8,621 nt of DNA from the IMG/VR virus record IMGVR_UViG_2645728091_000019. One strand, given 5' to 3'. The notes under the pieces are model-generated. The model saw only the letters and a list, made by a program, of their open reading frames with translations. It was not told the DNA's origin and ran no database searches. Shown in pieces: positions 1 to 8,621 of this stretch (the stretch's first letter is position 1; each line of letters opens with the position of its first letter). A program made the position numbers and the translations under genes. Source of the stretch: a virus (Duplodnaviria; Heunggongvirae; Uroviricota; Caudoviricetes).

Positions 1-1004
<1,004 letters not shown>

Positions 1005-1440: not shown

Positions 1441-1745
1441 AAAAAAATTTTTTTTCGAAAGAACTGTTCACACTGTTCACCTTTCTTTTTTCTCCTTTTA
1501 TTTCAGTATGATAGGTGGTGAATAATGGGTGAAGGGTGAACATTCGATTCTTCACCTCCGGCATTCTGCTGGTGTGACTCATACCGGTGATTAATCCCCC
1601 GTACTGAAAATCACACAGGGAGAAAAAAGTTTTTTTTGATTTGATTGTTCACACTGTTCACCTTTCGTTTTTCTCTTTTAATTTCAGTGTGATAACGGGT
1701 GAATATACGGTGAAGGGTGAACAGTAGATTGTTCACCTTCGGGGG
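1441..1745. repeat. crr-like cis replication region: two ~120-bp direct repeats 181 bp apart, each carrying TGTTCACC/GGTGAACA iterons
   Basis: TGTTCACA+TGTTCACC doublets at 1465-1481 and 1646-1662; inverted GGTGAAGG/GGTGAACA copies at 1528-1542 and 1709-1723; further TGTTCACC at 1730-1737. The octamer is the P4 alpha-binding type I iteron (from memory). Confidence 0.75.
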
Positions 1746-1755
1746 ATGTCGGGAT

Positions 1756-1780
1756 AAAAAAAGACCGGCAGATGCCGGTC
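1756..1780 (-). terminator. Rho-independent terminator just downstream of alpha
   Basis: Minus strand: GACCGGC-AUCU-GCCGGUC (7-bp perfect stem) followed by seven U (complement of the A-run at 1756-1762), 17 nt after the alpha stop codon at 1797-1799. Confidence 0.6.
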
Positions 1781-1796
1781 AGATGAGTCATGATGG

Positions 1797-3167
1797 TCAG
1801 GTTGTCGCAGGGTCGTCACATTTTGGCAGCCAGTCGCCGTAGCTTTCCTCTTTCAGTGTCAGGTTGGTCTGTATCCCCTGTTTGGTATGGCGCTTCTCGT
1901 AATTCAGTCCGTATTCCTTCAGCATCACCGGTAGCCCCAGCCCGAACATTTTCAGACTGAGTACATTCCGGTAGCCGTTTGCCTCCATGTAGGCCAGATA
2001 GGCGTGATAGAGGTATTTACGGTAATTACGCGGGATGATACTGGCGTTCCCCATATACATGCCGCTGGTCTGCGGCAGGGTTTCCAGATAGCCGATAAAA
2101 TCAAACGTCGGGTCGGCATCCCGTTTGATGTTCAGCGCCTCGTCTGAGTTCTGCTGGGACTGAAGCAGTGACCGGGCGAGCATCGGGTCGCTGAATTTCT
2201 GCATCAGGTGACGCACGATGACCGCCAGCTCGCGGGTGATTTTGTCCTTAAGCTGCGGGTCGCGCTCCTGCGGGGCTATCTGTTCCGGGAAGTGAATAAT
2301 CACCCGCCGGCGTGACACGCCGCCGCTGCGGTCGGTGAAGCGCATCGGGTTATTGTTCACGGCCAGAATCACCGCCGGGATGTGCGTGGAGTACGCATCC
2401 CGGTATTTCGGGTCAACGGACACCGCATCGCCGCCGGTGATGGCCTTGAGTCCGGCTCCGTCGCCGCTCCATTTTTCCTGGTCCGGCAGGCGTATCAGTG
2501 AGAAGCCAGTTAACGCGGCACGTTCACGCGGGGATTCCAGCGTCTCGATGGTGGCCGACGTGGCGTTATCCTCCCCGGCCAGCAGGGTGGCTATTTCGGC
2601 CATGATACTTTTGCCGCTGCCGCCGGGACCGGTCACCTCCAGAAAGAGCTGCCAGTCGTAGCGGTTTGCCAGCACCATAAACAGTGCGGCCAGAATCACG
2701 TCGCGTTTTTCCGCACGGCCACCGGCGGCACGGTCAAGCCAGCGCCAGAACGCGGGGGCGTGGGTTTCCAGCGTTTCCCCTTCCACCGGTGGGGTGAAAT
2801 CCACATCGCACAGGGTGCGCATCCAGTGTGACGGACTGTGCGGGTGGAACGTGCCGCTCTGCGTGTCGAGCACGCCGTTACGAAAGCCAATCAGGCGGCG
2901 GGAGGGGGCTTCCTGCTGCGGAATAATCAGCTTCAGGGTGTCCACCACGGAGGCCACCTTCCCGGAGGAGAACGGCGCGCGCAGACGCTGAAACAGCCCG
3001 GCCACATCCCGGGCAAAGTCCTGTGGCGGCAGCACCTTCCAGACACCATTTTCATAGCGGGACAGAAGCTGGCCGTTGGCATCGACCGCGAGCGCCTCGC
3101 CGTAATGCTCATAGATACGCATGGCCTTTTCGCTGGTACTCATGGCGGAAAACTCCGCTTCGCTCAT
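1797..3167 (-). CDS. alpha: P4 alpha-type helicase / origin-binding portion (C-terminal 456 codons of the alpha frame)
   Basis: Walker A VTGPGGSGKS encoded around 2607-2637. Same reading frame as ORF 3258-4130. No Shine-Dalgarno upstream of ATG 3167. Confidence 0.75.
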   Translation of the reverse strand: MSEAEFSAMSTSEKAMRIYEHYGEALAVDANGQLLSRYENGVWKVLPPQDFARDVAGLFQRLRAPFSSGKVASVVDTLKLIIPQQEAPSRRLIGFRNGVLDTQSGTFHPHSPSHWMRTLCDVDFTPPVEGETLETHAPAFWRWLDRAAGGRAEKRDVILAALFMVLANRYDWQLFLEVTGPGGSGKSIMAEIATLLAGEDNATSATIETLESPRERAALTGFSLIRLPDQEKWSGDGAGLKAITGGDAVSVDPKYRDAYSTHIPAVILAVNNNPMRFTDRSGGVSRRRVIIHFPEQIAPQERDPQLKDKITRELAVIVRHLMQKFSDPMLARSLLQSQQNSDEALNIKRDADPTFDFIGYLETLPQTSGMYMGNASIIPRNYRKYLYHAYLAYMEANGYRNVLSLKMFGLGLPVMLKEYGLNYEKRHTKQGIQTNLTLKEESYGDWLPKCDDPATT

Positions 3168-3257
3168 GGTATCGAACGGGCTTTCAGCCGGTGGCCGGAT
3201 GGCATCGTAAATGGCCTTACGGGTGGCTTCCCCGCCGTACTGCGTGAAGGCATCATT

Positions 3258-4130
3258 TCAGTCACCGAAGACCGGCGGCAGGGCAACAACACCTTCACAC
3301 GCATCTGCGGCTGCGGCGGCTTTTTTCTGGCCGTCACCGCTGAGGTCACGGTCTGCGGCAAGGACAATCTGACAGGCCGGATGCTTCTGCCGGGCAAGGC
3401 TGGCCAGAGAAAGGAGGTTCACGGAAGAAAGCGCCACCATCACCGTTTCACCGGTCAGGTGATGCACGGTAAGTGCGGTCGCGTATCCCTCCGCTATCCA
3501 CAGACGTTTTCCGGCCTGATTCTGTCCTTCAAGGATGTGACAGGTGCCCCTGACCTGTCCGCCTTTCAGGGTGCGCTTACGGCCGTCAGCACTGATTAAC
3601 TGAAGGTTAACCAGTTCGCCGCTGTCGTCATACAGTGGCACCACAAGGTCACCGGCACGCCAGCTCACGCCACCGGCTCTGTGTGTGCCGGTCAGCATCC
3701 GGCATTCCCGGCCGGGAAAGCCCTTGCGGGTCAGGTAGGCGTTACCGGTTCCGGGACGGGTTTTCGCCATCAGGGTTTGTGCCAGTGCGGCGGCGTTCTT
3801 CCGGGCGGCTTCTGTTTCAGCACCGGCGGCGGCCGTCACTGCCGGGTCAGCCGGGGGCAGGCTGCCGGTCACGGCAGCCACCTTTGCGGCCGCGTCGGAC
3901 GGGGAAACACCAAACACCTTTTCAACCAGTTTCAGGCCGTCACCGGCACCACACTGATTGCAGTACCAGGTGCCGCGCCCCTCCCTGTCATCAAAACGGA
4001 AGCGGTCACTCCCGCCACAGACCGGACAGGGCTGATGACGGTTTTTCAGCACCTGAATCCCCAGCGCCGGGAGAATACGCGGCCAGTGGCCGAGTGCATG
4101 GCTGACGGTGGCGGTTACGTTCATTTTCAT
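3258..4130 (-). CDS. alpha: P4 alpha-type primase portion (N-terminal 290 codons), ending at an in-frame TGA
   Basis: Zinc-binding CPVCGG...YCNQCG near the N-terminus; TOPRIM-like EGYATAL and AADRDLSGDG. Strong RBS AAGGAG 9 nt upstream of ATG 4130. The stop is TGA (plus-strand tca at 3258-3260). Confidence 0.75.
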   Translation of the reverse strand: MKMNVTATVSHALGHWPRILPALGIQVLKNRHQPCPVCGGSDRFRFDDREGRGTWYCNQCGAGDGLKLVEKVFGVSPSDAAAKVAAVTGSLPPADPAVTAAAGAETEAARKNAAALAQTLMAKTRPGTGNAYLTRKGFPGRECRMLTGTHRAGGVSWRAGDLVVPLYDDSGELVNLQLISADGRKRTLKGGQVRGTCHILEGQNQAGKRLWIAEGYATALTVHHLTGETVMVALSSVNLLSLASLARQKHPACQIVLAADRDLSGDGQKKAAAAADACEGVVALPPVFGD

Positions 4131-4144
4131 GGTGTTGTTCTCCT

Positions 4145-4465
4145 TCAGTGCAGTACCGGCGCTTTTATGTGACGGGCACAGAGTTCATCCATCACAACCA
4201 GCCCGAGAAAGGACAGCGACGGCGCGGCCTTCAGGGGGCCGGATTCCATTAAATCTTCCAGCAGGGCACAGGCTATCTGACGCCCTTTTTCCTCACCGTG
4301 CTGGCGCAGATAAAAGCCTTCCAGCTCAGCGGCGATGGCCGCCTCCAGTGACTCAAGGGTGAGATGCGGGTAGCGGTGCTGACGTTCGCACACGGTCAGC
4401 CAGGCACAGGCGACAGCGCGACGGTAAAGGGCAGCGCGTAAGACGGGCGGTAAGGGTGTTTTCAT
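4145..4465 (-). CDS. cnr: cnr-like (P4 orf106) copy-number regulator
   Basis: 106-aa ORF immediately upstream of alpha. GGAGG 7 nt before its ATG; its TGA stop (4145-4147) overlaps the alpha RBS. Position and length match P4 cnr (memory). Confidence 0.7.
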
Positions 4466-4600
4466 TTGCTTTCCTCCCTGTGACAGATGACTGCATTCCG
4501 TGCCGGTTGCATTAACTGATAAGGCATATCTGCGTCTCCTGAAGACGTGCGTATCCCTGCGCGAATACGCACATTTAATTTTTCGGGTGTCGTTTTTTAA

Positions 4601-5056
4601 TTACAGATAATTGCGGTAACTGTTATCCGGGGTGGTTTCCGGGTCAGGCTCCGTGCGGGGAATTTCCCGCCATTCCCGCGCTACCGGTGCTGCCCGGCTG
4701 ACCGGAACAGGGTCCTGCGGGTAAATATCCAGATATTTTTCCCGCCATTTCTGTAATTCCGGGTCTCCGGCCATTTCTTTCAGTACCGCATGCCGGTTTA
4801 CGGGGCTGCGTTTGAACAGGTCAGGACGGTCACAGGTAAATTCCCGCAGAAAACGCCCCAGCGGGATGTCTGTGGTGCGCCCGTCAGCGAGGATACGCAC
4901 AAGGATACTGAATTTACGGCGGTACGGATTCCAGACAATGTCCGGGCAGCGGTACGGCATTTCCCACGGAATACCGTCTTCCAGAATGCCGACCACGGCC
5001 ACATCGGGAAAACCGGCAGAACGGTAAATCTCACCGGGCTGGGGAAAATCAAACAT
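4601..5056 (-). CDS. P4 orf151-like protein of unknown function
   Basis: 151-aa ORF. Its start overlaps the stop of the upstream epsilon-like ORF (ATGTTTGA), indicating translational coupling within the leftward operon. Confidence 0.65.
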   Translation of the reverse strand: MFDFPQPGEIYRSAGFPDVAVVGILEDGIPWEMPYRCPDIVWNPYRRKFSILVRILADGRTTDIPLGRFLREFTCDRPDLFKRSPVNRHAVLKEMAGDPELQKWREKYLDIYPQDPVPVSRAAPVAREWREIPRTEPDPETTPDNSYRNYL

Positions 5057-5336
5057 GCGTCCTGTCTCCCCGGTCTTTCTGCTGGGCGAGAAAATCGCGG
5101 CACAGGCCTTTGGCTTTCAGCTCATTCAGCACAAAATCAATATCTTCATTCAGGTAGCTGAAAATATGCGGAATGTAGAGCTGATGCAGACCGGAGAGTT
5201 CACGGTGAATCAAATCACCCCCAACAAACCGGGATACGGCGCTGGCGCGGTTGAGCTTATGGTAAGCCTCAATGCTGAGGTGTTCACGGGCGTCATGACG
5301 TGCTGAGACGGTCTGAGGGGCTTTTTTATTACGCAC
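5049..5336 (-). CDS. epsilon: epsilon-like protein (P2-repressor antagonist in P4), 95 aa with GTG start
   Basis: The ORF track extends this frame to 5492, but the only start with a ribosome-binding site is GTG at 5334-5336 (GGAGG, 6-nt spacer). No SD precedes the in-frame ATGs at 5417 and 5381, and the upstream extension is Cys/Pro/Val-rich and atypical. Assignment is by position and length. Confidence 0.55.
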
Positions 5337-5526
5337 GGGACACCTCCACCACCGGCAGACGGGCAGCAAGGGAGAGCACATAGTCACGGACAAGGGAACG
5401 GCGGGCGCTGCGTTCATCACCGGCGACGGTGCGAAGCATACAGATACGAGGATGACGGTCTGCGCGACGGACAGCCGCAAACACAAAGACAAATTCAGGG
5501 TGTGAGGGGGTAAGGGTTGTAGCCAT
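5329..5526 (-). CDS. 65-aa first ORF of the leftward operon (position of P4 kil; identity unconfirmed)
   Basis: ATG at 5526 preceded by GGAGG with 8-nt spacer. Its stop overlaps the epsilon GTG start region. It is the 3' end of a spurious-looking 214-codon frame on the ORF track. Confidence 0.45.
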
Positions 5527-5556
5527 GATGGCAGCCTCCGTTAGATAGCAGGTTAC

Positions 5557-5852
5557 GCTATCGCCGGAGTTCTCACGCTCGATGGCGATAGCCCAGACGG
5601 GGGTGAGAATACCGGCTCTAACGGATACCGGCCAGCCCGGAGGCTGCCCCGCCTGAGCTACCATTGACTCTGCGGCATAATGAGCGGACGCGGGCAGGAT
5701 GCACGGAATGCCATCTGCACGACTGACCACACACCACACCATAATCTGGCGCTCTGTGGCGTTGATTGCGACACAAAAAAAGACGCATGGCGCGTCATAT
5801 GTCGCCGTTAGATTGCTCGGGTTCTCACGCCCGGCTGCCGATTTTGCGGCAG
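5557..5852 (-). promoter_or_regulatory. Untranslated immunity leader with seqA-like and seqC-like target blocks and an internal hairpin plus U7
   Basis: 10-mer GTTCTCACGC directly repeated at 5569-5578 and 5821-5830. The downstream copy sits in the loop of a 9-bp perfect hairpin (GCTATCGCC 5557-5565 / GGCGATAGC 5584-5592). A GACGC-GCCAU-GCGUC hairpin followed by U7 lies at 5775-5796 (minus strand). Confidence 0.5.
5590..5660 (-). ncRNA. Candidate CI-RNA-like immunity RNA (seqB-like block); boundaries approximate
   Basis: The leftward transcript carries ...GGUAUUCUCACCCCCGUCUGGGCUAUCGCC..., complementary to GCGUGAGAAC blocks upstream (5821-5830) and downstream (5569-5578). This matches the seqA/seqB/seqC logic of P4 immunity (memory). 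Ends cannot be mapped from sequence. Confidence 0.3.
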
Positions 5853-5853
5853 C

Positions 5854-5895
5854 GGAAAAACTATATCCGCAAATGCCGGAAAAAGGCAAGCCAGA
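5854..5895 (-). promoter_or_regulatory. Sigma70-type promoter for the leftward operon (PLE-like)
   Basis: Minus strand TTGCCT (complement of 5884-5889), 18-bp spacer, TATAGT (complement of 5860-5865). Predicted start near 5853, about 330 nt upstream of the first ORF. Confidence 0.45.
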
Positions 5896-5924
5896 AAAAG
5901 GGAGTTTTTGCAGAGCGGGCATCA

Positions 5925-6191
5925 TCATGCGTCGTACCCCCGTTTGCGTCCGGCAATGCGCCCGGCCATCCATGCAGTGACTTCAGAGTGCAGCCAGGCC
6001 ACATTTTTACCGCCAAGACTCACCTGCGGCGGAAATTCCCCCTTACGGATGAGTTCATAGATGGTCGAGCGTGACAGGCCGCACAGGTGCATCACTTCCG
6101 GCAGACGTAAAAAACGCTCCTGCGTGATGTCCGGCAGCGGCATCAGTGGCGTCACAGGGGCGGGAGACGGGGAAGAAAAAACAGCTTGCAT
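5925..6191 (-). CDS. vis: Vis-like AlpA-family small HTH regulator/excisionase (88 aa)
   Basis: 88-aa ORF with an AlpA/Xis-like HTH core ([27 protein letters not shown]). GAGG 8 nt upstream of the ATG. Lies downstream of a TGT-N12-ACA site, as expected for a late leftward promoter. Confidence 0.65.
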
Positions 6192-6293
6192 CGGGCTACC
6201 TCGTTAATGTCCATACAGCACCGGATAAGTCCGTCCGGCTTCGGGTAGCGCTTTATTTTGTGAATATTTTCAGCAGACGCAACAGGGGGGATT

Positions 6294-6311
6294 TGTTCCG
6301 GCAGCCTTACA
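6294..6311 (-). promoter_or_regulatory. TGT-N12-ACA dyad: Delta/Ogr-type late activator site for the leftward late promoter (PLL-like)
   Basis: TGT 6294-6296, 12 nt, ACA 6309-6311. Centre is ~110 bp upstream of the vis ATG, compatible with a -55 activator site and a ~55-nt leader. Confidence 0.5.
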
Positions 6312-6470
6312 ATTGCTGTGTGTTTTTTGCACATCAACGCCAGATAGCTTTAAAACGCTCTGGAAGGAGCTGGAAAAAATTATAGTGAAATACAAATTGT
6401 TTTTTTCTTATTTATTTCAGTTAATTAATAAAAATAAAAAGTAATAAACAGCACAAAAAGTCCATGAACG

Positions 6471-6575
6471 GGTGAACAGTGGTGAACAGACGGTGAACAG
6501 TCATTACTGCGATTGTTCACCATTTAATTTACTGTATTACTTATCTTTTTTATTAAGGTGAACAGAGGTGAACAG
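6471..6575. repeat. ori-like iteron cluster: five GGTGAACAG copies and one inverted TGTTCACC, flanked by very AT-rich DNA
   Basis: GGTGAACA at 6471, 6481, 6492, 6557 and 6567; TGTTCACC at 6514-6521; AT-rich tracts at 6360-6460 and 6522-6556. Same octamer as in crr, about 4.8 kb away. Confidence 0.7.
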
Positions 6576-6653
6576 TAAAATATAAAAAAACAAACAGTAA
6601 GCCGGTTTTTCCTGCGACCTTTTCCTGGCTTGCCGGTCTGAGGATGAGTCTCC

Positions 6654-6671
6654 TGTGTCAGGGCTGGCACA
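6654..6671 (+). promoter_or_regulatory. TGT-N12-ACA dyad: Delta/Ogr-type late activator site for the sid promoter (Psid-like)
   Basis: TGT 6654-6656, 12 nt, ACA 6669-6671. Centre is ~82 bp upstream of the sid ATG, giving a predicted start near 6717. Confidence 0.55.
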
Positions 6672-6743
6672 TCTGCAATGCGTCGTGTTGTTGTCCGGTG
6701 TACGTCACAATTTTCTTAACCTGAAGTGACGAGGAGCCGGAAA

Positions 6744-7478
6744 ATGTCTGACAACACCATCCCTGAATATCTGCAACCCGCGCTGGCACAACTGGAAAAG
6801 GCCAGAGCCGCCCATCTTGAGAACGCCCGCCTGATGGATGAGACCGTCACGGCCATTGAACGGGCAGAGCAGGAAAAAAATGCGCTGGCGCAGGCCGACG
6901 GAAACGACGCTGACGACTGGCGCACGGCCTTTCGTGCAGCCGGTGGTGTCCTGAGCGACGAGCTGAAACAGCGCCACATTGAGCGCGTGGCACGCCGGGA
7001 GCTGGTACAGGAATATGACAATCTGGCCGTGGTGCTGAATTTTGAACGCGAACGCCTGAAAGGGGCGTGTGACAGCACGGCCACCGCCTACCGGAAGGCA
7101 CATCATCACCTTCTGAGTCTGTATGCAGAGCATGAGCTGGAACACGCCCTGAATGAAACCTGTGAGGCGCTTGTCCGGGCAATGCATCTGAGCATTCTGG
7201 TACAGGAAAATCCGCTCGCCAACACCACCGGCCATCAGGGCTACGTCGCACCGGAAAAGGCTGTCATGCAGCAGGTGAAATCATCGCTGGAACAGAAAAT
7301 TAAACAGATGCAAATCAGCCTCACCGGCGAGCCGGTTCTCCGGCTGACCGGGCTGTCAGCGGCAACACTCCCGCACATGGATTATGAGGTGGCAGGCACA
7401 CCGGCACAGCGCAAGGTGTGGCAGGACAAAATAGACCAGCAGGGTGCAGAGCTTAAGGCCAGAGGACTGCTGTCATGA
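6744..7478 (+). CDS. sid: Sid-like capsid size-determination (external scaffold) protein, 244 aa
   Basis: ATG at 6744 with GAGGAG 7 nt upstream; the ORF-track start at 6726 is an upstream GTG with no RBS. Coiled-coil-like, charge-rich sequence. Its stop overlaps the delta start (ATGA). Length matches P4 Sid (memory). Confidence 0.8.
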   Translation: MSDNTIPEYLQPALAQLEKARAAHLENARLMDETVTAIERAEQEKNALAQADGNDADDWRTAFRAAGGVLSDELKQRHIERVARRELVQEYDNLAVVLNFERERLKGACDSTATAYRKAHHHLLSLYAEHELEHALNETCEALVRAMHLSILVQENPLANTTGHQGYVAPEKAVMQQVKSSLEQKIKQMQISLTGEPVLRLTGLSAATLPHMDYEVAGTPAQRKVWQDKIDQQGAELKARGLLS

Positions 7479-7975
7479 TTTACTGCCCGTCGTGTGGACA
7501 TGTTGCTCACACTCGTCGCGCACATTTCATGGACGATGGCACCAAGATAATGATTGCACAGTGCCGGAATATTTATTGCTCTGCGACATTTGAAGCGAGT
7601 GAAAGCTTTTTCTCTGACAGTAAAGATTCAGGAATGGAATACATTTCAGGCAAACAGAGATACCGCGATTCACTGACGTCAGCCTCCGGCAGTATGAAAC
7701 GCCCGAAAAGAATGCTTGTTACCGGATATTGTTGTCGGAGATGTAAAGGCCTTGCACTGTCAAGAACATCGCGGCGTCTGTCTCAGGAAGTCACCGAGCG
7801 TTTTTATGTGTGCACGGATCCGGGCTGTGGTCTGGTGTTTAAAACGCTTCAGACCATCACCCGCTTCATTGTCCGCCCGGTCACGCCGGACGAACTGGCA
7901 GAACGCCTGCATGAAAAACAGGAACTGCCGCCAGTACGGTTAAAAACACAATCATATTCGCTGCGTCTGGAATGA
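7475..7975 (+). CDS. delta: Delta-like late transcriptional activator (tandem Ogr-type zinc-finger protein), 166 aa
   Basis: Two Ogr-like Cys4 modules (CPSCGH...CRNIYC and CCRRC...CTDPGC). Translationally coupled to sid. Length matches P4 Delta (memory). Confidence 0.8.
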   Translation: MIYCPSCGHVAHTRRAHFMDDGTKIMIAQCRNIYCSATFEASESFFSDSKDSGMEYISGKQRYRDSLTSASGSMKRPKRMLVTGYCCRRCKGLALSRTSRRLSQEVTERFYVCTDPGCGLVFKTLQTITRFIVRPVTPDELAERLHEKQELPPVRLKTQSYSLRLE

Positions 7976-8048
7976 GGGCTGCCGGTTAACCCCGGCCGTC
8001 GCCGCACACCGTATTTTTATTCTTCAGCATGATGAGAAAGAGATAACG

Positions 8049-8621
8049 ATGGAGAGCACAGCCTTACAGCAGGCCTTTGACACCTGTCAGAATAACAAAG
8101 CAGCATGGCTGCAACGCAAAAATGAGCTGGCTGCGGCCGAACAGGAATATCTGCGGCTTCTGTCCGGGGAAGGCAGAAACGTCAGTCGCCTGGACGAATT
8201 ACGCAATATTATCGAAGTCAGAAAATGGCAGGTGAATCAGGCCGCCGGTCGTTATATTCGTTCGCATGAAGCCGTTCAGCACATCAGCATCCGCGACCGG
8301 CTGAATGATTTTATGCAGCAGCACGGCACAGCACTGGCGGCGGCACTGGCACCGGAGCTGATGGGATACAGTGAGCTGACGGCCATTGCCCGAAACTGTG
8401 CCATACAGCGTGCCACAGATGCCCTGCGTGAAGCCCTTCTGTCCTGGCTTGCGAAGGGGGAAAAAATTAATTATTCCGCACAGGATAGTGACATTTTAAC
8501 GACCATCGGATTCAGGCCTGACGCGGCTTCGGTGGATGACAGCCGTGAAAAATTCACCCCTGCGCAGAACATGATTTTTTCGCGTAAAAGTGCGCAACTG
8601 GAATCACATCAGTCTGTGTAA
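8049..8621 (+). CDS. psu: Psu-like polarity-suppression / capsid decoration protein, 190 aa
   Basis: 190-aa ORF last in the sid-delta operon, ending with TAA at the final three bases of the window. Length and position match P4 Psu (memory). Confidence 0.8.
   Translation: MESTALQQAFDTCQNNKAAWLQRKNELAAAEQEYLRLLSGEGRNVSRLDELRNIIEVRKWQVNQAAGRYIRSHEAVQHISIRDRLNDFMQQHGTALAAALAPELMGYSELTAIARNCAIQRATDALREALLSWLAKGEKINYSAQDSDILTTIGFRPDAASVDDSREKFTPAQNMIFSRKSAQLESHQSV

Follow-up and report, generated by a model that had tools for sequence, protein, structure and literature searches.

A P4-like satellite prophage of Escherichia coli, complete in other respects, with a likely recent opal nonsense mutation in its primase-helicase gene alpha

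Two open reading frames follow each other on the minus strand of the window, by which we mean the whole analyzed stretch of 8,621 nucleotides of the virus record IMGVR_UViG_2645728091_000019. They raise the question of whether they are a primase gene and a helicase gene in their own right or the halves of one gene broken by a stop codon, and what that stop codon represents. Translated from 4130 to 1797, the minus strand reads as 778 codons; besides the terminal stop there is a single other one, at codon 291. The two listed frames, 3258-4130 (290 aa) and 1797-3167 (456 aa), are in phase and separated by 30 sense codons (292-321); retranslation thus agrees with the reading made earlier from the sequence alone, which had described one TGA within a 777-codon alpha frame. 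The frame aligns without gaps and over its whole length to the alpha gene of phage P4 (2,334 of 2,334 nt, 98.3% nucleotide identity), which bears out its assignment to P4 alpha, and to that of E. coli KCJ3K291 (99.5% nucleotide identity); these alignments indicate that the interrupted frame did not arise by chance. Codon 291 specifies Trp in P4 as well as in the closest E. coli copy, in line with the supposed ancestral TGG and C at plus-strand position 3258. The change amounts to a single transition, G>A on the coding strand and C>T at plus-strand 3258. In comparison with P4 we counted 27 synonymous and 12 non-synonymous differences (the stop included), all of which except the TGA keep the frame, while the comparison with KCJ3K291 gave 10 synonymous and two non-synonymous differences, one of the latter being the stop. 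Codon 291 is the single lesion of alpha, and a second one is absent with respect to both relatives. Since most of the remaining differences are synonymous, the mutation appears to be recent.

We consider it likely that Trp291 (TGG) of alpha has recently been turned into an opal codon, TGA, by a genuine nonsense mutation in a P4-like satellite prophage that is integrated at ssrA in one E. coli lineage and is complete in other respects. It is a case of ordinary gene inactivation, and a new mechanism is not involved. The features on which this reading is based are collected in Table 1.

Table 1. Features of the alpha locus and their positions in the window
Feature	Position	Strand	Basis or remark
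alpha (primase-helicase) gene of a P4-like satellite	1797..4130	-	777 codons plus stop, broken once at codon 291; translation and alignment to P4 and KCJ3K291
Upstream ORF, 290 aa	3258..4130	-	Zn-ribbon and Toprim domain truncated at the C-terminus
Primase zinc-ribbon (CPVCGG...CNQCG), aa 30-66	3933..4043	-	Pfam PF08273, E = 6e-19
Toprim domain footprint (aa 210-299 of intact P4 alpha)	3234..3503	-	Stop inside; Pfam Toprim_3
EGYATA motif of Toprim	3474-3491	-	Present upstream of the stop
DRD (DxD) motif of Toprim	3345-3353	-	Present upstream of the stop
D-[W/F]-[N/D]-D Toprim motif codons (D290, stop 291, N292, D293)	3252..3263	-	Conservation among homologues
Opal codon TGA, codon 291	3258..3260	-	TGG (Trp) in P4, KCJ3K291 and EC18
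Downstream ORF, 456 aa from ATG codon 322	1797..3167	-	D5_N, SF3 helicase and winged-helix ori-binding domains; without Shine-Dalgarno
GGAG (3153-3156) and in-frame ATG codon 330 (3141-3143)	3141..3156	-	Candidate internal start, 448-aa helicase-only product
Walker A GPGGSGKS of the SF3 helicase, aa 501-508	2607..2630	-	Pfam DUF5906 and D5_N matches
C-terminal Pox_D5/winged-helix origin-binding domain, aa 670-768	1827..2123	-	Pfam PF03288
Rho-independent terminator t-alpha, after alpha	1763..1780	-	Position matches the P4 annotation
crr (cis-required replication region), two 120-bp direct repeats	1442..1742	.	Repeat family D1 in parent contig L003 (12389-12508 and 12570-12689), mapped to the window; P4 annotation

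As for the position of the stop within the protein, it had been proposed that primase motifs lie upstream of it and the Walker A helicase downstream. The second half of this proposal stands: the Walker A motif is in place, and D5_N, the SF3 helicase domain and the C-terminal winged helix are all present (PF08706, PF19263, PF03288). Over P4 residues 671-770, which correspond to the solved structure 1KA8, the window differs by synonymous changes alone and encodes the same amino acids. The first half needs to be amended, as the stop sits inside the last conserved Toprim motif, where it replaces the aromatic residue and removes D293 and G299. The Toprim_3 profile (Pfam) covers positions 2-93 of 95 in intact P4 alpha (48.5 bits) and just positions 2-78 in the 290-aa fragment (37.4 bits). 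With W291 of the D-W-N-D motif replaced by a stop, no single polypeptide contains a complete Toprim domain, nor does an uninterrupted chain of primase and helicase exist because of the in-frame TGA. Among the 113 representative homologues taken, of which only non-gap residues were counted, D290 occurs in 101 of 103, W or F at position 291 in 99 of 102 and D293 in 102 of 104. The motif aligns with DPDD of Bacillus subtilis DnaG (5GUJ), although the profile match is weak (E = 0.15). We found no solved structure of a close relative of the primase domain, and the structure profile search of the Toprim part returned this marginal DnaG match (E = 0.15). Conservation, together with the weak DnaG alignment (E = 0.15), suggests that D293 may have a catalytic role.

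The TGA allele was encountered repeatedly in public data. The exact 290-aa product turned up on 24 or more contigs across 33 database blocks (NCBI, Logan, ENA). Among them are three isolate assemblies from NCBI, two assembled SRA runs and three scaffolds of gut metagenomes, which come from different BioSamples. The eight carrier loci that we compared are essentially identical across alpha, and carriers with enough flanking sequence have a common right-hand junction, attR followed by an integrase cut by IS100. This shared junction points to one vertically inherited allele, and we found no evidence for its spread by transfer. In turn, the 80 nt around the stop had no exact match in 5,426 complete E. 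coli genomes (1,203 copies of the stretch), and in IMG/VR the TGA 21-mer was detected in one contig and its TGG version in 83; a recurrent or conserved stop was rejected on these grounds. Neither the TGA 36-mer nor the 21-mer matched GTDB species representatives or JGI metagenome contigs. The TGA allele is rare and private to one E. coli clone.

The remainder of the satellite is well preserved. The window holds psu, delta, sid, alpA, ash, eps, orf151, cnr and alpha, and all genes of this set other than alpha are equal in length to those of P4. The P4-like core set (int, psu, delta, sid, alpA, epsilon, alpha) is complete and in P4 order, with alpha as a pseudogene, and in the parent contig the integrase adjoins ssrA. 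Colinearity with P4 includes the ori region, and homology to P4 stops at 1442. Both attL and attR are present; attR duplicates the 3' region of ssrA together with the terminator, and each end has arm-type repeats. Cargo genes in the int-psu hotspot are still intact. E. coli EC18 possesses the same element at the same site and with the same cargo (98.8% identical), with alpha intact. The sequence-only reading had considered a replication-defective satellite in the form of a decaying prophage. Replication deficiency is the best-supported reading, but decay was an overstatement and is not supported by the P4-length core genes and the presence of int, both att sites, crr and the terminator.

Given this context, the consequences of the mutation can be outlined. 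Translation would normally terminate at codon 291 and yield a Zn-ribbon/Toprim fragment of 290 aa. Two residues of the near-invariant D-W-N-D...G motif, D293 and G299, are missing from this fragment, and owing to their loss it is probably catalytically dead. Helicase and origin-binding domains would be produced, if at all, from a weak internal start at Met330, and then with no primase attached. Replication of P4 requires the primase, helicase and ori/crr-binding activities of alpha jointly. As the three are needed together, the satellite would replicate after induction barely or not at all, and judging from its sequence it is most likely replication-defective or strongly attenuated. In a repressed prophage alpha is presumably dispensable, which would make the mutation neutral with regard to the host; drift could then have fixed it within the clone.

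Low-level readthrough, the third option of the sequence-only reading, is favored by the context, since the base after the TGA is A and the ancestral residue is Trp, and a degree of leakiness is plausible. It is conceivable, though unlikely, that near-cognate Trp-tRNA-Trp reads the codon at about the percent level, inserts the wild-type residue and so supplies enough full-length alpha to keep the satellite replication-competent, perhaps at a lower copy number; the absence of further lesions in alpha fits such a scenario. In E. coli, tRNA-Trp misreads UGA most readily when the next base is A (PMC5289835), and a reporter in E. coli K-12 gave 2-4% UGA readthrough (PMC10570021). Because the wild-type residue is Trp, the readthrough product would be wild-type alpha, and a null phenotype may be leaky. 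RF2 of K-12 is unusually weak. Wild isolates therefore probably read through less than the reporter suggests, and since alpha is a multimeric helicase-primase, about 1% of the normal level may not suffice. Moreover, the stop is conserved in no relative, which does not suggest selection for it; the allele is confined to one clone with no sign of horizontal spread, and a stimulatory structure downstream is lacking. A rather improbable extension is that the UGA-A opal acts as a natural attenuator, which would keep alpha at roughly 1% of normal and leave the satellite mobilisable with strongly reduced, possibly growth-condition-dependent replication, or else that the helicase/ori-binding fragment from Met330 has an activity of its own.

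The latter notion depends on internal initiation, which had been considered unlikely due to the absence of a Shine-Dalgarno sequence. This is accurate for the ATG at 3167 (codon 322), whose duplex energy is -0.1 kcal/mol, but not for the next in-frame ATG, at 3143 (codon 330), which is preceded at 9 nt by GGAG and reaches -6.1 kcal/mol vs -8.8 kcal/mol at the native alpha start. Wild-type P4 has the same GGAG/ATG330 stretch, with one synonymous difference at codon 320. A helicase-only product from Met330 is thus possible as far as its initiation signals indicate. It could be envisaged that such a 448-aa helicase/ori-binding fragment and the 290-aa primase cooperate in trans, as in other elements where primase and helicase are encoded by different genes. 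The recorded gene calls of the carrier contigs do start at codon 330 and give the 448-aa product, D5_N, the helicase and the winged-helix domain are complete 3' of Met330, and among representative homologues of the N-terminal domain roughly every second one is a short protein (<400 aa) consisting of a primase only. Yet, most of these short primases keep D-[WF]-[ND]-D and typically end 10-50 residues beyond it (the majority of stand-alone homologues terminate at or after P4-equivalent positions ~299-345), whereas the 290-aa frame ends at D290, within the motif, and does not include the whole Toprim fold. A clean split at a domain boundary was rejected, as both Pfam coverage and motif conservation put the stop within Toprim. 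The arrangement is also absent in every relative examined, 115 untranslated nt extend from the stop to ATG330, and the Shine-Dalgarno match there is weaker than the native one; we regard a functional split as very doubtful.

A sequencing or assembly error, one of the explanations raised by the sequence-only reading, would mean that the true genome has TGG, and the deviation of one base from all complete genomes might be taken in its favor. It is effectively refuted by the recovery of the same product from independent isolate, SRA-run and metagenome assemblies, and the change is a substitution rather than a homopolymer indel. Programmed recoding at the UGA (selenocysteine, regulated readthrough or frameshifting) merits practically no credence, as it has the in-frame UGA in its favor and nothing more, homologues have W or F at position 291 and a stop in none, the allele is private to one clone, and a SECIS or readthrough hairpin was rejected because, over the 106 nt that surround and follow the stop, folding is not better than in shuffled sequence (MFE -30 vs a shuffle mean of -32.6 kcal/mol, z = +0.74).

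For annotation, inactivation of alpha by W291* implies that both ORFs should be recorded as one alpha pseudogene rather than as a "DNA primase" and a "toprim domain" protein. Beyond annotation, the finding is of little importance. Pseudogenised alpha has been described before in P4-like elements: in defective elements of this type, no other core gene is recorded as a pseudogene as often as the primase (PMC13586616), and variants without alpha are frequent (PMC8628076, Moura de Sousa and Rocha). In our own comparison, alpha is frameshifted in four of the 62 close IMG/VR relatives. The single-lesion alpha is consistent with the published view of the primase as the core gene most often lost. Its likely value is that of a clean, datable first step in the immobilisation of a P4-like satellite, with one lesion in a replication gene and the rest intact, and the natural opal allele is convenient for asking what amount of alpha such a satellite requires.

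Among known systems, the closest is P4 alpha itself (NP_042036), which combines a Zn-ribbon/Toprim primase, D5_N, an SF3 helicase and a winged-helix ori/crr-binding domain. The window gene is equal to it in length, order, domains, terminator and crr, and differs by TGA instead of TGG at codon 291 and by 11 further amino-acid substitutions, mostly in the linker (100-126) and at the very end of the C-terminus. The stand-alone Zn-ribbon/Toprim primases encoded beside separate helicases (~300-350 aa, many of them in the representative library) have the same N-terminal architecture as the 290-aa fragment, but unlike it they retain Toprim in full, with the D-[WF]-[ND]-D motif. With leaky UGA mutations read by tRNA-Trp in E. 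coli, the locus shares the UGA-A context and the Trp ancestor codon. Finally, as in the alpha pseudogenes of defective P4-like satellites (PMC8628076; PMC13586616), a replication gene is inactivated in a prophage; yet, while the reported defective elements usually contain several lesions or fragmentary genes, this one carries one nonsense substitution and no other decay.

We found that positions 4130..1797 of the window (minus strand) form a single frame of 778 codons, with stops at codon 291 and at the terminus. Translation confirmed the sequence-only reading that the ORFs 3258-4130 (290 aa) and 1797-3167 (456 aa) share one phase and are split by a single in-frame TGA: 30 sense codons separate this stop (3260-3258, minus strand; context GAC TGA AAT) from the first downstream ATG. 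This frame is alpha, which encodes the primase-helicase of a P4-type satellite. It aligns end-to-end and without gaps with phage P4 alpha (98.3% nucleotide identity), and it aligns with a chromosomal copy in 1,154 of the 5,426 complete genomes of E. coli (best 99.5%). Codon-by-codon comparison revealed TGG (Trp) at codon 291 in P4, in E. coli KCJ3K291, which carries the closest complete-genome copy, and in E. coli EC18, where the same element, with identical cargo, occupies the same site. A single G>A transition in the coding strand, read as C>T at position 3258 of the plus strand, accounts for the lesion. Alpha differs from that of P4 by 27 synonymous and 12 non-synonymous changes, none of which, apart from the stop, breaks the frame, and from that of KCJ3K291 by 10 and 2, one of these two being the stop itself; relative to both, no second lesion has been acquired. 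Such mostly synonymous, frame-preserving differences imply that alpha was under purifying selection until very recently. W291* (TGG>TGA) is a real, recent and clonally inherited nonsense mutation, and it cuts short alpha's Toprim domain.

As for the place of the stop in the protein, the Toprim_3 match, which covers profile positions 2-93 of 95 (48.5 bits) in P4 alpha, is reduced to 2-78 (37.4 bits) in the 290-aa fragment. We compared this fragment with 1.84 billion cluster representatives, aligned the 113 sufficiently long matches and counted non-gap residues; residue 291 sits in a near-invariant motif (see table), the Toprim glutamate E214 being kept, for comparison, in 113/113. A profile of the Toprim region matched the catalytic core of B. 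subtilis DnaG (5GUJ) marginally (E = 0.15), and in this marginal alignment EG, DxD and DWND lie opposite EG, DSD and DPDD of DnaG. In Toprim enzymes these acidic clusters bind catalytic metals. The earlier picture of a clean stop between primase and helicase is thus not upheld: the shortened Toprim_3 match and the motif cut at 290-293 show that the stop does not fall at a primase/helicase linker but deprives the catalytic fold of its end. About half of the representative homologues are shorter than 400 aa and primase-only in appearance, yet most of these keep the motif and typically end 10-50 residues past it, whereas the 290-aa fragment stops inside it and is thus no example of the natural short-primase architecture. 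We consider a replication-defective or strongly attenuated satellite most likely.

Coordinates of features of alpha and of the element's right-hand end and flank (residues refer to intact P4 alpha, nucleotides to the window)
Feature	Position	Strand	Detail
Zn-ribbon	residues 30-66		Pfam
Toprim_3	residues 210-299		Pfam
D5_N	residues 336-467		Pfam
SF3 helicase core	residues 500-608		Pfam
Pox_D5 / winged helix	residues 670-768		Pfam
Motif position	290		D in 101/103 non-gap homologues
Motif position	291		W or F in 99/102 non-gap homologues
Motif position	293		D in 102/104 non-gap homologues
Motif position	299		G in 91/106 non-gap homologues
GGAG-ATG330	3141-3156	minus	also in wild-type P4 alpha
attR	1181-1302	minus	diverged ssrA 3' end (...aactccgccagcccacca), then ssrA terminator-region copy, 93% identical
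Second integrase remnant	1061-1005	minus	first 19 codons only (MARQTKPLSVKEIESAKPK), beyond attR
IS100 terminal sequence	977-1004		
istB of IS100	276-938	plus	

Of the three stops, UGA leaks most in E. coli; the RF2 of K-12 is unusually weak, so natural isolates probably read through it less than this strain. In a K-12 reporter, Trp-tRNA-Trp, competing with RF2, decodes UGA at about 2-4% (PMC10570021). Unprogrammed leakiness at codon 291 is plausible: the stop context is UGA-A, and since the ancestral residue is Trp, each readthrough event would give wild-type alpha. We regard it as unlikely that Trp readthrough is functionally sufficient.

As for expression of the downstream half, the claim that no Shine-Dalgarno sequence precedes the ATG at 3167 (ATG322) is borne out, as complementarity is absent (-0.1 kcal/mol). 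In turn, the in-frame ATG330 (window 3143), immediately ahead of the D5_N domain, has GGAG 9 nt upstream (-6.1 kcal/mol vs. -8.8 at the native alpha start), and the recorded gene calls of the carrier contigs start there. Some amount of a 448-aa helicase/ori-binding protein may therefore be produced, and this product would hold D5_N, the Walker A motif GPGGSGKS (aa 501-508) and the domain solved as 1KA8 (the P4 alpha C-terminal ori-binding domain), with no primase. Its partner, the 290-aa fragment, would nevertheless lack the end of the catalytic fold, and short homologues mostly keep the motif, which makes a working two-piece enzyme very improbable. The GGAG-ATG330 signal is not a product of the mutation, since it already exists in wild-type P4, where intact alpha might itself give rise to a helicase-only isoform.

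The alternative of a sequencing or assembly error, also put forward from the sequence alone, was rejected. The 290-aa product is present, by exact sequence, among public proteins, and a contig look-up, read from 33 database blocks, placed it on at least 24 contigs. These come from three isolate assemblies at NCBI (GCA_001266375.1, GCA_001265845.1, GCA_002460965.1), two SRA runs assembled by Logan and three ENA gut-metagenome scaffolds from different BioSamples. Two isolate contigs are 100% identical to the window; the remaining carriers differ only in the length of a homopolymer (by 1 nt), in one 15-nt repeat unit, in a few SNPs that all lie outside alpha or in N runs, and all with enough flank have the right-hand junction in common. 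The near-identity of carriers from isolate, SRA and metagenome sources, together with this junction, shows that the TGA is one vertically inherited allele, and an artefact is scarcely credible. Programmed recoding, the least probable reading of all, was dismissed because a 106-nt stretch spanning and following the stop contains no SECIS-like or stimulatory RNA structure (its folding does not surpass that of shuffled sequence, z = +0.74) and because codon 291 is a stop in none of the homologues.

The TGA allele is rare. Across 5,426 complete E. coli genomes, the 80 nt around the stop have no exact match (best, one mismatch), a 36-mer and a 21-mer across it were not found in GTDB species representatives or JGI metagenome contigs, and in IMG/VR the TGA 21-mer occurs in 1 contig vs. 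83 for the TGG version; the former, at 9,500 nt, equals one of the isolate contigs in length. Among the carriers, L004 (GCA_002460965.1) and L007 have one extra T after window 6406, in the sid-alpA intergenic (ori/promoter) region, and in the metagenome scaffold L009 the epsilon and orf151 calls are joined into one 231-aa product by a gap of 50 nt (5058-5107); both may be assembly artefacts.

Colinearity with P4, running from crr to psu, spans window 1442-8621, and psu, delta, sid, alpA, the ash/icd-like gene, epsilon, orf151, cnr (DUF5375) and alpha have product lengths as in P4. On L003, the parent contig with host flank, the order is smpB and ssrA; integrase (397 aa); a two-gene cargo (HAD hydrolase and PUA-like metallophosphoesterase); psu, delta, sid, alpA, ash, eps, orf151 and cnr; interrupted alpha; the alpha terminator, then crr (two 120-bp repeats); and an attR copy of the ssrA 3' end with terminator. 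With gene order, crr, terminator and attR all present, the element looks complete except for codon 291. Of the proposed replication-defective, decaying prophage, the defect most likely stands, decay is not supported, and 'freshly disabled' is the better description.

The attR holds a tandem 15-nt duplication (AGCCCGCACGGCGCA x2), one unit of which is missing in the metagenome carrier L005, and each end of the element carries an arm-type repeat (ATTGGTATAC..TAGGTATACG). The second integrase is cut by the end of the IS21-family IS100, a junction common to all TGA carriers with enough flank. The int-psu interval (L003:2787-5242, outside the window) is the P4 defence hotspot; its HAD-family hydrolase (279 aa) and PUA-like/metallophosphoesterase (537 aa), a pair also present in EC18, whose alpha is intact, may be an uncharacterised defence system. 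The host tmRNA tag (L003:1108-1143, in ssrA, outside the window) reads ANDESFALAA vs. the usual E. coli ANDENYALAA, through two substitutions (AAC TAC to AGC TTC), and the exact 80-nt tag region occurs in 2 of 5,426 complete E. coli genomes, A25 (monkey) and NZ_CP090611 (pig). In L004 (1-1335), the TGA element does not directly adjoin smpB-ssrA. Its att region is preceded by the 3' part of a gene whose 516-aa product has no Pfam match and whose DNA matches none of the complete E. coli genomes, which suggests an unknown island inserted in tandem at ssrA.

Loss of alpha is documented in P4-like satellites, and variants without it are frequent among near-complete elements (PMC8628076). In our sample of 62 closely related P4-like IMG/VR contigs covering the whole gene, alpha is intact in 57, carries an in-frame 9-nt insertion in one (L057) and is frameshifted by indels in four (L029, L039, L054 and L055, with aligned lengths of 2339, 2335, 2335 and 2330 nt); these five differences may be real or draft-assembly errors. 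W291* adds to a known phenomenon, and is unusual only in that one clean opal substitution, in a Trp codon, makes up the lesion.
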